DNA of 64,000 nt from an uncultured Chlamydiae bacterium (GCA_963730605.1 CAVSSM010000003.1:1029-65028); one strand, 5' to 3'; positions 1,151 to 60,188 are shown, numbered from the stretch's first letter. Notes: generated from the sequence alone by a model not told the origin. Program-made: numbers and translations.

Positions 1151-1173
1151 AGAGGGTGTCTACAAAGTGAGGG
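1151..1173. repeat. Solo terminal repeat of MITE family B
   Basis: AGAGGGTGTCTACAAAGTGAGGG matches the left terminal inverted repeat of the family-B elements at 20420 and 60011. Similarity stops after about 23 nt. Confidence 0.55.
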
Positions 1174-1243
1174 TTCAGCGATCTAAATTGTTCTTGGGGA
1201 GTGCGCTGGAGTGCGCTCTTCAGAATACCCGTTCCTCTTGAAA

Positions 1244-3205
1244 CTATCCGAAAATTTTCCGTTTGAAATGGGTAAACCAGGAGACCGGCATGGCGGGGAC
1301 TCCCGCTTCAGCGATCTCTTCGTTAAGCGGATTGAAGGAAGCTAAGCCATCTCGATAGTCTTTCAATACGCCATGAGCCATAAAGACGCCTCCGCCATTC
1401 GGGATCGCGCCCACAAACCGGAGAAGGTCGTCGAGGATTTCATAGCGTCTTATTTGGAGATTGCGGTCGTCGACGATGCGCGCCCGCCCGAATACGGCCC
1501 CTGCGATCTCGCACACCTCTAAGCCCGTCAATGGCGTTGCATCGGTCGCCCAACGGAAAAAGAGGCGAAGGGAAATATTTTCGACGACAGCCCTGTCTAC
1601 GTCTTGTTTGCACGCTCCGCTATTTCGGATCATGAACAGGTCTTTATCGAGGCGGTCGTTCATTTGGTTCTCGATCATTTGGGGAGTGATTCGATCGAAT
1701 GACCCATAGAGCATCCCTAGCGTCAAAAACGTGTCGGCGACGAGGATCATCATCCGGCCCAACCTCTCTCTTCCCTTGGGATCTTGCATGTTTATCCACC
1801 AATAGGAGTTACTCTCGGAGAGCTTATGGCAAAACTCTTCGGCCTTTTCTAGGGCAAGAGCCACTTGGTCGTCGCTGAAAAGATCTTCGGGAATATAAAG
1901 GCCGTTATCCGTTTTTGGGTCGTCGTCTAGGTCGCGGAGGCCCTCTGACTCATAATCTCTTAGTTTGGTGAAAAAATCTTCGACCGAACTGAATTCAGAG
2001 CAGAGCTTTTGTGCCCAAGGCTTGTCGAAGCTAATCACGGCATGAAGGTGTTGATTATTCTCCATCTCGATTGCATCTTTGATTCGGAGATGATCTTTGG
2101 AGTCGCGCGTATTTTGGTGGTTGAAGCGGAGCTCGAAAGTGCCGAATTTTTCATAAGCGGGCAAAAGGCCGTATTTGAAGAGAGGATCTCCCGTCGGCCC
2201 AGCCCCGTAATAAAATGCGACTTGTTTCCCATCCAGATCGAACGAGTGGCCGGAAAAGTGGGGGTTTCCTTGGCTTCCGTCATAGGAAAGAGGGTGTGTG
2301 TTCGAATAGAGAGCGTGGATCCCTTTGAGCGGATGGGCCGCCCACCAGAGGAACCGCCCCTCTTGCAAGAGTCCGAAACCGTCGACATTGAAAGACGGCC
2401 TTTTGAAATAATTGGAGAGCAGGTCGGCAAGTTCTGTCGGATGGATCTCGCTATTTGGCTGTAAATCGGCTTTGTCTAAGCACTCTTTTCCATATGCCTG
2501 AAGGGTTTCCATTCCATCGGTTGCTACGAGTTTGACTGCGAGAATTTGGAGAAAATTCACGGCATAGCAATCGGGGTTATTGGCCAGGTCGCGGAAGATT
2601 TGCATATTCATCACCTCGCCGATCTCCCCGCGGACCGAGGCCACATCGAGAAAGAAGGAACTTCCCTTATGTTGGAGAAGCTGGATCTTTTCCTTAATTT
2701 GGATCACTTTCTTTGCCATGAGGGATGCGCTTTCCCGATCGGCCCCCTCGCCCAATAGCTGTTCGATATTCGCCGCCAGCTCCTGTGGAGTAAACCTCCC
2801 GATCACCCGGCCGGGCGTATACACATCGGCGATTTGACCCAGCCGTTTCCCTTCTACGACAAGCTCAAGCCCTTCCAACAGTTTCTTGATTCGGGCTTTT
2901 TCGATCCCATCATGGAGGGTTTTGTGGTTGTGATATGAAACGGCCTTTGCAATCCCCGCCCACCAAAAATTCAGCGCCGACCACATGAGAATGAATAGGC
3001 TGCCGAACACGAGAACGGCGGCGCTTTTCACCCGAGAAGCAACCGAGGGCGCCTTTTTACTTACTTTTTCTTCCAACGGGATCTCGGTTTCAACGGTTGC
3101 CGAATCGGGCAATTCGCTGAGCTCCAAGTCAAAGGGCTGCTCCGGAAACTCACTAATCCCTAAATCGGACAAGGAAGGAGGTGGTTTTGTTAAATCAATC
3201 GGCAT
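1244..3205 (-). CDS. Large membrane-anchored hypothetical protein with C-terminal CX5R motif; candidate effector
   Basis: Long ORF (track 1244..3406). I place the start at ATG 3205 (MPIDLTKPPP...) because the upstream 67 codons overlap the 3' end of hemL. The N-terminus is acidic and Pro-rich, followed by one TM helix (AAVLVFGSLFILMWSALNFWWAGIA). CKQDVDR is encoded at 1592-1612. The C-terminal third parallels that of the 728-aa ORF at 16939..19125. Confidence 0.6.
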   Translation of the reverse strand: MPIDLTKPPPSLSDLGISEFPEQPFDLELSELPDSATVETEIPLEEKVSKKAPSVASRVKSAAVLVFGSLFILMWSALNFWWAGIAKAVSYHNHKTLHDGIEKARIKKLLEGLELVVEGKRLGQIADVYTPGRVIGRFTPQELAANIEQLLGEGADRESASLMAKKVIQIKEKIQLLQHKGSSFFLDVASVRGEIGEVMNMQIFRDLANNPDCYAVNFLQILAVKLVATDGMETLQAYGKECLDKADLQPNSEIHPTELADLLSNYFKRPSFNVDGFGLLQEGRFLWWAAHPLKGIHALYSNTHPLSYDGSQGNPHFSGHSFDLDGKQVAFYYGAGPTGDPLFKYGLLPAYEKFGTFELRFNHQNTRDSKDHLRIKDAIEMENNQHLHAVISFDKPWAQKLCSEFSSVEDFFTKLRDYESEGLRDLDDDPKTDNGLYIPEDLFSDDQVALALEKAEEFCHKLSESNSYWWINMQDPKGRERLGRMMILVADTFLTLGMLYGSFDRITPQMIENQMNDRLDKDLFMIRNSGACKQDVDRAVVENISLRLFFRWATDATPLTGLEVCEIAGAVFGRARIVDDRNLQIRRYEILDDLLRFVGAIPNGGGVFMAHGVLKDYRDGLASFNPLNEEIAEAGVPAMPVSWFTHFKRKIFG

Positions 3206-3260
3206 AGAAATATAATAACAAAAAAATGATTTTAAAATCAATAAAAAAATTAAATAATCT

Positions 3261-4556
3261 TTATATGGATAATAAAAAATCGACGATTTGATCCGCCGTG
3301 AAATCGAGCTCAGCATAGGTATGGGCCGAAGAGACGAACCACGCTTCATGAGAGGACGGAGGCAGGTAAATCCCCCGCTCGAAAAGGGTTCGGAATAAGC
3401 GGACAAAGAGGCCCTGGTCGAGCTTTGCTAAATCCTCTTTAGACTTGACCTCCCTTATTCCAAAAAAGAGAGAGAACATCGACCCGCATTGATTGACGCA
3501 GGCGTTGAGATTTTTAAGTAAGATCGCTTCCTTGACCGGCCCAGTCACCCGATTGGCTTTTTCCTCAAGAGCCTTATAAAACCCTGGTTTTTCGACCTCC
3601 CGGAGAGCCGCAAGGCCTGCCGCCACCGCCACCGGATTGCCGGAAAGCGTGCCTGCCTGATAGACCTCTCCCAACGGGGCTAGGGCGTCGAGGATCTGTT
3701 TCTTCCCGCCCACTGCCGCAACCGGAAAGCCCCCGCCGATCACCTTGCCAAAACAGCTCAGATCAGGCTCTATCCCGAAAAGTCCTTGCGCGCCAGCAAG
3801 GCCGAAACGAAAACCGGTGATCACCTCATCGAAAATCAAAAGCGCGCCGGCGCGCAAAGTCTCTTCGCGCAGCATCTCCAAAAATCCAGGCTCGGGCAAG
3901 ACAACTCCCATATTGCCGGTGACGGGTTCTAAAATCACCGCCGCGAGGGCCTCTGCCTGAGGATCGGTCCGGAAAAAGGAGCGGACCCTTTGGAAATCGT
4001 TGAACGGGACAACGAGCGTATCGGCTAAGACCGCGGGATTAACACCTTTGGAAGTGGCGATGGGATTGAGGCTTAAGACCCCAGAGCCTGCTTGCACAAG
4101 GAGCGCATCGCTATGGCCGTGATAGTGGCCCGAAAACTTCAAAATCTTCGGCTTTTCCGTGTAGCCCCTGGCAAGCCGCATGGCGGTCATCGCCGCTTCC
4201 GTTCCGCTAGAGACAAGGCGTGTTTTTTTGACCGATGGGATGAGCGCGGCGATCTTTTCGGCCATTTCGACCTCGAGATTCGTCGCGATCCCGAAAGACG
4301 ATCCGCGACGCATCTGTGCCACTGCCGCATCCACGATCGCCGGATGGGCATGGCCCAAAATAAGGGCGCCCCAACTCATGCAGTAATCGATGTACTCATT
4401 CCCATCCGCGTCGCGGATGCGAGCAGCAAAGCCCGACTCGGCGATCATCGGCGGCGAGAGTCCTAGCCCTTTGAACGAACGGACCGGAGAATTCACACCT
4501 CCCGGGATGAGCGCGCAGGCTCTTTCGTAGATCGCTTCGGATCGAGGCCTCTTCAT
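3261..4556 (-). CDS. hemL: Glutamate-1-semialdehyde 2,1-aminomutase
   Basis: Class-III aminotransferase translation with ALIPGGVNSPVRSF, LILGHAHP, FDEVITGFR and FGKVIGGGFPVAAVGGK blocks characteristic of GSA aminomutase. The start is placed at Met24 of the track ORF (4556), giving about 431 aa. Confidence 0.9.
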   Translation of the reverse strand: MKRPRSEAIYERACALIPGGVNSPVRSFKGLGLSPPMIAESGFAARIRDADGNEYIDYCMSWGALILGHAHPAIVDAAVAQMRRGSSFGIATNLEVEMAEKIAALIPSVKKTRLVSSGTEAAMTAMRLARGYTEKPKILKFSGHYHGHSDALLVQAGSGVLSLNPIATSKGVNPAVLADTLVVPFNDFQRVRSFFRTDPQAEALAAVILEPVTGNMGVVLPEPGFLEMLREETLRAGALLIFDEVITGFRFGLAGAQGLFGIEPDLSCFGKVIGGGFPVAAVGGKKQILDALAPLGEVYQAGTLSGNPVAVAAGLAALREVEKPGFYKALEEKANRVTGPVKEAILLKNLNACVNQCGSMFSLFFGIREVKSKEDLAKLDQGLFVRLFRTLFERGIYLPPSSHEAWFVSSAHTYAELDFTADQIVDFLLSI

Positions 4557-59348: not shown

Positions 59349-59399
59349 TATTTTTGAAAATCCTCAATGAAACTCTCGCGAAATTCTGGAAATGCAGGA

Positions 59400-59942
59400 T
59401 TAGAAGATGTCGAGGGAAGAGATCAGTTGGCGGTGCGCTTGCCCAGCCATTTCAGGGCTCTCCGTATGGAATGTATAGAGAAGTTTTGAGCTCGATTGGA
59501 TCCGCTCCCACACCCATTTTTCGCCCACTCTATAAAATACATCGAGGCGGTCGCTAAGCGCGTTCTTTTTCACTTTGAGAAGGAGGACATCGGGAAGGGA
59601 TCGGATTTCCTCGAGTCTCTCTTCAAAGAGAGACTCAGGGTCCCCTTCCGCTCTTTTTTCGACCCGAAGGCGCAGCTGGTCTTCGCCATGAGCCGCGTCG
59701 ATCTGGATGCCTCCAGGATAGTAACGATAGTGCGGATCGTCTGGAAAACGGACCAAGAACTTCTCCCCTTCCAGCTTCTTGGAAAATACGACCCAGACCC
59801 CTATTTCTTCGTCGGGAAACTCTTCTTGGCGGGAGTCAGGACGCTCTACAGGCACCCAGCCATCTGCATCTGGAATTGCTTGCGGAGACGAACCAACCAG
59901 AAAAGAACTAATTAAAACATTTAAAAATTTCAAATCACACAA
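59400..59942 (-). CDS. Secreted hypothetical protein
   Basis: 180-aa ORF with a signal-like N-terminus KFLNVLISSFLVGSSPQA. No motif recognised. Confidence 0.5.
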   Translation of the reverse strand: MCDLKFLNVLISSFLVGSSPQAIPDADGWVPVERPDSRQEEFPDEEIGVWVVFSKKLEGEKFLVRFPDDPHYRYYPGGIQIDAAHGEDQLRLRVEKRAEGDPESLFEERLEEIRSLPDVLLLKVKKNALSDRLDVFYRVGEKWVWERIQSSSKLLYTFHTESPEMAGQAHRQLISSLDIF

Positions 59943-60010
59943 CTTAAATAATTTAATTTCATATCAATTATACAACAACACAGCATTAACAACAGCAACT
60001 CATCTAAATA

Positions 60011-60188
60011 AGAGGGTGTCTACAAAGTGAGGGAACGCCCGAGTTTTTGGATTATTTTGGCCGCTTTTCGACTTCAAAGCTTGGGGGGGCCATATACTTC
60101 TGTCGATATTGCCCCCCCAAGTCTTAAATCGAAAATCGGCTCAAAAGAACCGAAAAATCGACAGAACTTCACTTTGCAGACACCCTCT
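60011..60188. mobile_element. MITE family B, copy 2
   Basis: 178 bp with the same termini as copy 1. The internal hairpin arms are G7/C7 (60083-60089 and 60112-60118) instead of G5/C5. Confidence 0.8.

Follow-up and report, generated by a model that had tools for sequence, protein, structure and literature searches.

Correia or NEMIS elements of Neisseria are non-coding sequences of ~100–200 bp that end in inverted repeats, are flanked by a TA duplication, occur in many intergenic copies, and are co-transcribed with neighboring genes. The general picture of bacterial MITEs has been reviewed, including the RPEs of Rickettsia, for which in-frame insertion into coding genes can occur (PMC10969869). 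A further report (PMC5896051) describes two MITE families, QMITE1 and QMITE2, in the obligate intracellular pathogen Coxiella burnetii, whose genome contains ISs as well, and discusses them with respect to the evolution of proteins and small RNAs. The literature that we searched reports no MITEs in Chlamydiota. Here, we analyze a window of 64 kb (the whole stretch of DNA under study) from an environmental member of this phylum, which very probably contains recently active non-autonomous MITEs of approximately nine terminal inverted repeat (TIR) families that are moved in trans by DDE transposases.

Element families and their host

Families A–I were recovered by self-BLAST, repeat finding, and direct reading of the window and comprise 17 full or near-full elements and four fragments (table 1), which account for 5.2% of the window sequence and ~24% of the intergenic portion. 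The original prediction of a swarm of ~20 elements from approximately nine families is therefore supported at or very near the coordinates that it gave; the boundaries of H (28792–29057, predicted as 28802–29047), G, and the partial Family F copy were replaced by the ones listed here. An unbiased hairpin census identified no further hairpin families. The elements are of MITE size (120–354 bp) and have no coding capacity; ORFs that overlap them lack family support, the elements occupy intergenic gaps, and the only Rfam families found in the window are rRNAs. Assignment of the host to Chlamydiota holds, as 16S signatures and homologs of OppA and TamB agree: six oligonucleotides that we take to be Chlamydiae-specific 16S signatures all have exact matches in the window, all named homologs of OppA are from Chlamydiales or Chlamydiota, and so is the sole named close homolog of TamB.

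Each family has 2–4 copies in the window by self-BLAST. The expectation that copies differ by few substitutions is correct for Family D (2–3 substitutions, 98.2–98.8% identity, with D1 one base shorter than D2 and D3, 168 vs. 169 bp). Family B copies are 95.6% identical, and Families A (81%) and C (82–92%) are much more diverged within the window; a Family C copy on another contig is 99.3% identical to C1. The E1/E2 and F1/F2 pairs have only termini and backbone in common because of the nested modules in E2 and F2.

Table 1. Miniature elements, fragments, modules, and insertion sequences of the window
Feature	Coordinates	Strand	Ends, duplication, and remarks
Solo Family B terminus (remnant)	1151..1173	+	Lone end
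S1 module in TamB	8325..8371	.	In frame, adds AGPGAPEDASSLGWGG
A1, Family A hairpin	10689..10831	.	Ends GAGCCTATC...GATAGGCTC, AT/AT flanks
Partial Family C terminus	12743..12771	-	Adjoins synteny break with relative
D1, Family D	15910..16076	+	Ends AACCTGAG...CTCAGGTT, duplication GTT
C1, Family C	16088..16252	.	TA followed by TACCGCGCCCGC...
C2, Family C	16769..16932	.	Inverted relative to C1
B1, Family B	20421..20592	.	Ends GAGGGTGTCT...AGACACCCTC, TAA duplication
G, hairpin of ~175 bp	21925..23108	.	CTCGACTTTGTACAATTTT ends, TA-flanked, split by IS
ISAs1-family IS	21958..22965	+	CAGGGCGAGCGC ends; 9-bp duplication CGGCATCTC; interrupts G
I, ISAs1-type miniature	24205..24324	.	CAGGGCG ends, 10-bp duplication TGGGATATTT
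D2, Family D	26484..26650	+	Duplication AGT
H	28792..29057	.	TATACCGCTC termini; modules S1 (28831–28867) and S2 (28931–28978)
F1, Family F	29914..30084	.	Ends TACTCAAG...TTTGAGTA, TA duplication
E1, Family E	34166..34344	.	TA-flanked
A2, Family A	36106..36278	.	Inverted relative to A1, 81% identical (self-BLAST)
F2, F-type backbone	48597..48830	.	Extra terminator-like hairpin and S1
ISAzo13-family IS	49314..50674	-	GGGATTGTCTGA ends; 408-aa transposase; TTA duplication
Partial Family F copy, one arm	51296..51382	-	Self-BLAST
D3, Family D	52626..52792	-	Duplication ACT; abuts E2
E2, E-type backbone	52794..53147	.	Two nested S2 modules (52911–52969 and 53029–53076)
C3, Family C	54044..54206	.	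Within 23S–5S rRNA spacer
B2, Family B	60012..60187	.	TAA duplication; upstream of rRNA operon

Hairpin architecture and position relative to genes

Each element is an imperfect palindrome over its full length of ~165–180 bp, and the larger elements contain nested hairpin modules. TIRs with arms of 19–33 nt that are 81–100% complementary are present in all families, as predicted; however, that description was too narrow, given that complementarity continues along the full length and the whole element is a hairpin. Compared with shuffled sequence, folding is far stronger for all elements (z = −5 to −13), which excludes chance as the source of the hairpins. A compensatory change is found in 23 of the 55 pairs of Family D, in which 94.7% of cells are paired compared with 30–51% when slid, a value reached in none of 500 shuffles; the corresponding count for Family B is 26 of 64 pairs. 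Paired changes in both arms keep the full-length hairpin over evolutionary time, and this upkeep could be due to selection on a cruciform or an RNA stem–loop or to arm-to-arm conversion. The hairpin loops serve as landing pads for small modules (S1 and S2) and ISs, whose entry accounts for the larger composite elements; in F2, module S1 (48660–48713) replaces the apical loop.

All miniature elements in the window are intergenic. Insertion points lie almost exclusively in A/T-rich intergenic DNA and often at exact stop/start junctions with both codons intact: A1 sits between the TAA stop of a 233-aa gene and the ATG of a TPR gene, and A2 is immediately upstream of the DJ-1/PfpI start codon. C1 and C2 flank a 516-bp segment. 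Both orientations relative to flanking genes occur, with no bias. This codon-sparing, intergenic insertion is the probable reason that a compact genome can tolerate the elements. The lone intragenic module is S1 in TamB, where a module of ~47–54 bp adds 14–16 residues in frame. We see no sign of the major role in gene inactivation that had been suggested for the elements: they are intergenic, and the lone disrupted gene, which encodes a membrane protein, is split by the full-length ISAzo13-family IS.

Insertion polymorphism and candidate transposases

The elements are genuine non-autonomous transposons. Relatives that are ~93% and ~85% identical have clean empty sites, and comparison with these orthologous sites defines duplications of AT for Family A, TAA for B, AGT for D, and TA for F. 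The empty sites read CAGATA-AT-GGATTT for A1 (relative L130), GTGA-AT-GAGATC for A2, AAAGAG-TAA-ATTAAAC for B1, and CTTTTCTT-AGT-AGAGGCC for D2 (all three in relative L131), and CAGAG-TA-TATGG for F1 (L131 and L133); C1 is absent from L131, the region of E1 is missing from it, and H has the same site and ends there with a different interior. The Family A junctions may alternatively be read as duplication-free insertion beside ATG. Family B duplications are TAA, TTA, and TGA (i.e., TNA). Among 32 Family D copies drawn from over ten genomes, 20 have a perfect, variable 3-bp direct repeat; the duplication of this family can be any sequence, with a bias toward ANT. Families C, E, G, and H have only a palindromic TA, which could belong to the inverted repeat and not to a duplication.

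Within the compared region, the orthologous site lacks 11 of 12 full elements in a 93.4%-identical relative, so we conclude that activity is very recent; close relatives differ in the insertions that they have, and the predicted recent amplification is confirmed for at least Families D, B, and C. The sequences extend beyond the window: more copies of B and C are present on contig_34321 of the same sample, and at least ten other environmental Chlamydiota MAG species contain homologous D-, C-, F-, B-, and A-type elements of equal size. An independent short-read assembly breaks within A1 and D1, in keeping with dispersed copies. Family D retains a near-invariant 23-nt terminus and a length of 170 bp in at least ten other Chlamydiota species. 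Element density is only approximately twice that of unbiased flanks in those relatives and is not unique to this genome, given the homologous elements in at least ten other species.

DDE transposases supplied in trans would recognize the TIRs, and staggered cuts would leave the family-specific target-site duplications. The window has only the two coding ISs originally noted, of ISAs1 type (a 295-aa ORF with a DDE_Tnp_1_assoc domain) and ISAzo13 type. The ends of each IS are similar to those of no more than one family (I and B, respectively), which places most partner transposases elsewhere, as had been proposed. The TTA duplication of the ISAzo13-family IS is proven by its insertion into a Family C element. 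A common signature of 53 metagenomic ISAzo13 ISs is TWA followed by GG..TGTC..AAATAA, and Family B (TAA followed by GAGGGTGTCTACAAAGTGAGG) fits the consensus, TWA followed by GG(G/A)..TGTC..AAATAA(C/G)T, both in its termini and in its 3-bp TNA/TWA duplication; the match to the resident ISAzo13 IS is at the level of the signature only, with termini agreeing at approximately half of positions, and no ISAzo13 IS with ends identical to those of B was found. Element I and the ISAs1-family IS have CAGGGCG ends in common, with duplications of 10 and 9 bp, respectively. The same sample contains, on a different contig (L048, about 14–1224), a degraded IS630-type (DDE_3) IS with ends that read TA followed by GTACCTGACC or TA followed by GTACCTGACCACAAAAG; these termini, from the only copy sampled, match none of the window families. 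The TA duplication of IS630/Tc1-mariner elements is found for F1, based on its empty site in two relatives, and C, E, G, and H are consistent with it. From these end sequences and duplications, we infer that the mobilizing transposases would be of the ISAzo13 family for Family B, of the ISAs1 family for element I, and IS630-like for the TA-flanked Families C, E, F, G, and H.

Searches for full-length ISs sharing each terminal repeat yielded only this family-level resemblance for B and I and, for A and C–H, no autonomous IS whose termini match, whether in the window, 44 genome loci, 80 ISAzo13 loci, or relatives; these searches also provided no partner transposase for D or A. Given that none of the 44 loci with the exact Family D terminus, drawn from 185,579 species genomes, includes a full-length IS or autonomous copy, it is conceivable, although unlikely, that D is moved by a chromosomally encoded (domesticated or unrecognized) enzyme or by a hairpin/cruciform intermediate, which, if true, would be a transposition system not previously described.

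Alternative explanations and comparison with known elements

We consider it very unlikely that the repeats are chiefly functional structured RNAs or intergenic regulatory hairpins (terminators, mRNA stabilizers, RNase III sites, or small RNAs) that are conserved by host-level selection and became repetitive by duplication or recruitment without transposition. The covariation that holds the D and B hairpins across genera and the Family B interior motif, which is invariant across genera, are in keeping with such a role, as is the location of elements at operon junctions and within the rRNA operon, from which it follows that they must be transcribed. The excess of G·T pairs over A·C mismatches (91 vs. 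23 by cells) would also favor a strand-specific (RNA-level) constraint but disappears when counted by column (23 vs. 17). The elements do not match Rfam, they show no orientation bias, their absence at 11 of 12 sites in the 93% relative indicates that loci are not conserved, and variable-sequence duplications together with clean empty sites indicate insertion by transposition. A secondary, exapted RNA effect is possible and is compatible with transposons. Y1 transposases (IS200/IS605) insert without duplication beside a fixed tetra- or pentanucleotide, and REP/BIME sequences are 20–40-bp palindromes that carry GTAG/CGTC-type tags, lack a duplication, and are associated with a RAYT gene. The maintenance of full-length hairpins by covariation, the lack of a DDE partner for D or A, and the alternative reading of the Family A junctions would fit REP/BIME-like or palindrome-associated elements for which a single-strand Y1 transposase (RAYT or IS200/IS605) uses the hairpin as the recognition signal; however, this is highly improbable for elements of 165–180 bp in which true TIRs extend to the ends and direct duplications of 2–3 bp vary in sequence, which are not Y1 products, and no RAYT or TnpA-Y1 gene is among the annotated genes of the window or sampled loci. 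Membership in the REP/BIME and RAYT class was rejected on size, on duplications, and on the RAYT gene, which was not seen.

The window derives from a metagenome assembly, and the missing base of D1 could be a sequencing error, so we also weighed assembly or binning artefacts, in which chimeric joins or long-read errors create palindromes. Their probability is negligible, and this explanation is effectively refuted: an Illumina-derived Logan contig from another run, an independent short-read assembly, is 100% identical to window positions 10805–15952 (5.1 kb) and includes element edges, as its ends lie 29 bp into A1 and 44 bp into D1; many MAGs that were assembled independently contain these families; and empty sites in relatives are precise. 

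A broader reading, which we consider unlikely, is that environmental Chlamydiota host a lineage-wide guild of ~170-bp hairpins in which structure, in addition to the ends, is the unit of selection. On this reading, the elements may also be modular punctuation of chlamydial operons, given that they enter stop/start junctions and the rRNA spacer.

The elements are new MITE families that belong to an already known type of element, the bacterial MITE, and do not represent a novel type of system. Like Correia/NEMIS elements, they are small, non-coding, dispersed in intergenic DNA, and bounded by terminal inverted repeats, with a TA duplication for F and probably for C, E, G, and H; unlike them, they belong to another phylum and have unrelated sequences, and at least four duplication classes are represented among the approximately nine families in 64 kb, all of which are full-length hairpins of near-equal size. 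The likeness to RPEs, by description, lies in an obligate intracellular host and several full-length palindromic families of ~100–150 bp; in-frame insertion is seen only for module S1 in TamB, whereas all full-size window elements are intergenic, and these differ from RPEs in having clear terminal repeats, target duplications, and very recent insertion polymorphism. Compared with QMITE1 and QMITE2, they differ in phylum and sequence. Family B shares with ISAzo13 ISs (Pfam: DDE_Tnp_ISAZ013) a G-rich start, a TGTC core, an A-rich tract, and a TNA/TWA duplication but has no transposase gene, and element I, in contrast to ISAs1 ISs, is a non-coding sequence of 120 bp whose terminal repeats agree with those of the resident IS over only the first ~8 nt.

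Hairpin elements and their insertion sites

Self-comparison of the window recovers the families of miniature inverted-repeat elements (A to I) named in the original prediction, with corrected coordinates for H, and an unbiased hairpin census of the window yields no additional family. Every element can be aligned to its own reverse complement over its full length and folds into a single long hairpin (z-scores of -5 to -13 relative to shuffles); the elements are therefore full-length imperfect palindromes, more than sequences with inverted ends. They span 3,317 bp in total, which amounts to 5.2% of the window's length and to about 24% of the sequence between its genes, and 100% of them are intergenic, so that the widespread gene inactivation previously proposed is unsupported. 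Some elements contain small nested hairpin modules, S1 and S2: the second F copy (F2) has the F backbone plus an additional terminator-like hairpin, with S1 in place of its apical loop, the second E copy (E2) is an E backbone with one S2 module per arm, and H contains both. A search of the window against Rfam at the gathering threshold returned rRNAs only, and no tRNAs were found in the window. A separate repeat at 43935-44174 consists of three tandem 93-bp units that are 87-95% identical.

Element families in the window, with empty and filled target sites of numbered copies
Family	Coordinates	Remarks	Empty site	Filled site
A	10687-10833, 36104-36280	copies 81% identical	A1: CAGATA-AT-GGATTT; A2: GTGA-AT-GAGATC	A1, A2: AT-[GAGCC...GGCTC]-AT
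B	20420-20593, 60011-60188	95.6% identical; solo end 1151-1173	B1: AAAGAG-TAA-ATTAAAC	B1: TAA-[GAGGG...CCCTC]-TAA
C	16088-16252, 16769-16932, 54044-54206	82-92% identical; fragment 12743-12771		
D	15909-16076, 26483-26651, 52625-52793	98% identical	D2: CTTTTCTT-AGT-AGAGGCC	D2: AGT-[AACCTGAG...CTCAGGTT]-AGT
E	34166-34344, 52794-53147			
F	29912-30086, 48597-48830	fragment 51296-51382	F1 (both relatives): CAGAG-TA-TATGG	F1: TA-[TACTCAAG...TTTGAGTA]-TA
G	21925-23108	interrupted by IS		
H	28792-29057			
I	24205-24324			

Empty sites were obtained from two relatives found via TamB and OppA homologues, one 93.4% identical over 29.5 kb (ERZ25039465:contig_62370, loci L130 and L131; the 93% relative) and the other, a JGI contig (L133), about 85% identical. 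Of 32 family D copies, drawn from more than 10 genomes, 20 are flanked by a perfect direct repeat of 3 bp whose sequence varies, mainly ANT-like (AAT, ATT, AGT, ACT), with TTT, TAG, TGT, AGA, CTT, AAC, and GTT also represented; most copies lacking a perfect repeat differ by one base. Our first reading of the D ends as a TA duplication was dropped for this variable 3-bp duplication around AACCTGAG...CTCAGGTT. The TTA or TGA flanks of B copies at other loci indicate that the B duplication is TNA. Element I is flanked by a 10-bp duplication and the ISAs1-type IS within G by a 9-bp duplication. Families C, E, G, and H have a palindromic TA only, which fits a TA duplication and may equally be part of the inverted repeat, and the junctions of E1 and of the intergenic site between MlaD and a 729-aa protein are compound, with no clean duplication. 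The family A insertions (10685-10834 and 36277-36281) fall exactly at start codons in the contexts TAATG and TGAATG, and the duplicated AT leaves the downstream ATG intact. A purine-rich tract resembling a Shine-Dalgarno sequence, contributed by the family A end (GAGATAGGCTC / GGGATAGGCTC), lies immediately upstream of the ATG.

The S1 module of F2 and H also occurs in frame within TamB (8325-8371; ORF 6379-9840), where it inserts AGPGAPEDASSLGWGG; only the TamB of the window and that of a 94%-identical relative have this segment, and nine other homologues lack it. The third C copy lies in the 23S-5S spacer (23S, 54264-57213; 5S, 53871-53985; minus strand) and its long hairpin must therefore form part of the rRNA precursor transcript. 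Judged from sequence, a putative regulatory impact of the elements is plausible, and candidates for operon-level regulation are provided by the insertions at stop/start overlaps, by the C copy of the 23S-5S spacer, and by the in-frame module of TamB.

Host, authenticity, and turnover between relatives

The minus strand of the window encodes a complete rRNA operon, whose 16S gene has all six signature oligonucleotides specific to Chlamydiae. The named OppA homologues are all from Chlamydiales, Chlamydiota, or Parachlamydiales, as is the sole named close homologue of TamB, and the ankyrin, HECT, and C39-like peptidase genes fit the gene content of an intracellular symbiont. The window lies within an 88.9-kb ENA metagenome contig (ERZ25039593:contig_34311). 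An independent short-read (Logan) contig is 100% identical to positions 10805-15952 and ends 29 bp into A1 and 44 bp into D1, which shows that the window sequence is correct and that the repeats are multi-copy in the genome. The concern that the elements might be confined to the window does not hold, given that family B is represented on a second contig from the same sample (L048) by a partial end and by a further copy sharing 97.7% identity with B1, and family C by a copy sharing 99.3% identity with C1.

Amplification had been proposed to be recent, and the comparison with the 93% relative bears this out: in the comparable part of the window, 11 of 12 full elements (A1, D1, C1, C2, B1, G, I, D2, F1, E1, and A2) have no counterpart at the orthologous site, H being the sole element in common. 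That relative, for its part, contains a D copy not shared with the window (AAT flanks) and, at a site that is empty in the window, a B-like copy. The MlaD/729-aa site is found in three states among three genomes: the flanking genes are just 7 bp apart in the 93% relative, a B copy separates them in the 85% relative, and in the window (15637-16934) 1.3 kb holds D1, C1, a small ORF, and C2. The site of H is shared by the window and L131 (11544-11843), where the element has identical ends and unrelated interiors, S1 and S2 in the former and another nested palindrome in the latter, pointing to nested insertion or replacement within the hairpin. The site in the relative corresponding to the solo B end contains an unrelated 1.1-kb ORF rather than a B-ended IS. 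With about a dozen miniature-transposon insertions in 40 kb distinguishing two genomes that are about 93% identical, MITE turnover is a rapid, major source of divergence in genome structure in these environmental lineages, including in the neighborhoods of effector-like genes (HECT, ankyrin). In practice such repeats break up short-read MAGs, and the elements could serve as strain markers.

Several larger differences were also observed. C1 and C2 are inverted around a 516-bp segment with a 98-aa ORF, an arrangement resembling a small composite transposon. A strain-specific 2.5-kb segment (24189-26698), missing from both relatives, contains element I, D2, and a gene for a HECT-domain protein in which a 96-bp unit is tandemly repeated (24775-25285). 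At its borders lie the two copies of a duplicated sequence of about 85 bp (23877-23962 and 26458-26709, the latter broken by D2). The block at 34116-35166, where the 93% relative has 24 bp instead, contains E1 with a pair of small genes, of which one encodes a DUF4258 domain, and may be a small mobile cassette. Two ankyrin-repeat genes in tandem (30111-33191), which share about 85% identity over 1.5 kb, have just one counterpart in L131. Synteny with the 93% relative ends at 12725, beside a partial C terminus (to 12771), which may reflect a rearrangement mediated by C copies.

Hairpin conservation and candidate transposases

In a 20-sequence alignment of D elements, 94.7% of cells are paired in register versus 30-51% when partners are slid, and compensatory change is found in 23 of 55 pairs versus 5-8 when slid, values matched by none of 500 shuffles. 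Compensatory change is also found in 26 of 64 pairs of family B (alignment A3: window 20421-20592 and 60012-60187, with copies from L048, L133, and L131 and from two loci of other genomes, L039 and L012). The termini co-vary among B subfamilies, opposite to the D pattern, and the interior motif GGATTATTTTGGCC / GGCTCAAAAGAACC..ATCGACAGAA is invariant across genera, which hints at a putative conserved internal binding site or signal. Either selection or arm-to-arm conversion could maintain the hairpins. A strand-specific RNA function is unsupported because D elements occur in both orientations relative to flanking genes without bias and G·T mismatches, more numerous than A·C when counted by cells (91 versus 23), show no significant excess by columns (23 versus 17).

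As had been claimed, the window encodes only two ISs, one ISAs1-type (DDE_Tnp_1_assoc) and one ISAzo13-type. The latter (49314-50674, TTA duplication) interrupts a membrane-protein gene (48939-51100) whose restored 263-aa ORF aligns over the IS junction with a paralogue at 51533-52609. A 99.7%-identical copy on L048 is inserted in a C element as CCCGC-TTA-[IS]-TTA-GGTTGTG, for which intact C copies provide the empty site; based on these two insertions, the ISAzo13 IS is active. We found no usable description of its ends in the ISAzo13 literature; 53 metagenomic ISAzo13-family ISs share the terminal signature TWA|GG(G/A)..TGTC..AAATAA(C/G)T, which the B end (TAA|GAGGGTGTCTACAAAGTGAGG) fits and which D mismatches. 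Element I and the ISAs1 IS have CAGGGCG ends in common. IS630-type (DDE_3) genes are present in the same sample, and the single IS630 copy in all sampled DNA, on L048, is degraded with different ends. No autonomous D partner was identified, as at none of 44 loci with the D terminus do paired ends enclose a transposase at a spacing of 1-3 kb; unpaired D ends adjoin ORFs of housekeeping type (T2SS protein F, a MiaB-like enzyme, transketolase, sigma-54, and ThrRS). A full-length partner IS of D would be expected to have AACCTGAGTTTTGGGTTCATTT ends. Searches of viral contigs with the D, B, and C termini gave 0 matches and hence no evidence for a viral vector.

Distribution and comparison with known elements

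These 44 loci come from an exact-match scan for the D terminus in one genome per species, and most are in Chlamydiota MAGs; host labels include Parachlamydiales, Rhabdochlamydiaceae, 'Chlamydiales bacterium', and several Verrucomicrobiae-labelled MAGs, and a Verrucomicrobiae-labelled complete chromosome of 2.28 Mb has 11 D loci. The 'uncultured Verrucomicrobiae bacterium' MAGs (OY970364.1, CAVOSF, CAVSUE, and CAWHZZ) carry D-, C-, F-, and B-type elements as in Chlamydiales-labelled MAGs, and their label may be a naming issue. Matches in Leptospira lie inside a conserved ORF and are regarded as chance or coding matches. The D element is exactly 170 bp at 19 loci and its 23-nt terminus is near-invariant, with an overall identity to the window copies of only about 69%; the terminus is thus a simple probe for such genomes and a handle on the candidate transposase of D. 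About 20 more hairpin elements, 163-184 bp long and with termini resembling those of C, F, B, and A, lie in the flanks of D loci, and none in 24 kb of control loci from Leptospira and Acidobacteria. The swarm is therefore found throughout this lineage of environmental chlamydiae. By the same method, density is about 0.7 per 10 kb in D-locus flanks versus 1.9 per 10 kb in the window, so that the window falls near the top of the density range of a swarm that extends beyond it.

Chlamydiae are usually pictured as having stable, repeat-poor genomes. The literature we searched contains no report of MITEs or non-autonomous elements in Chlamydiae/Chlamydiota, and neither a 2024 MITE survey of 183,232 genomes nor a 2024 review mentions Chlamydiae. 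By every structural criterion the elements are bacterial MITEs. The TA-duplicating Correia-type MITEs are among their closest analogues; in life-style and in-frame insertion the closest are the Rickettsia palindromic elements, of which the in-frame S1 in TamB is reminiscent, together with the Coxiella QMITEs. More unusual are the convergence of about nine families with at least four duplication classes on one hairpin form of about 170 bp, the very fast turnover between near-conspecific genomes, the wide conservation of family D with no detectable autonomous partner, the insertions exactly at stop/start junctions with both codons kept, and the copy within the 23S-5S spacer.
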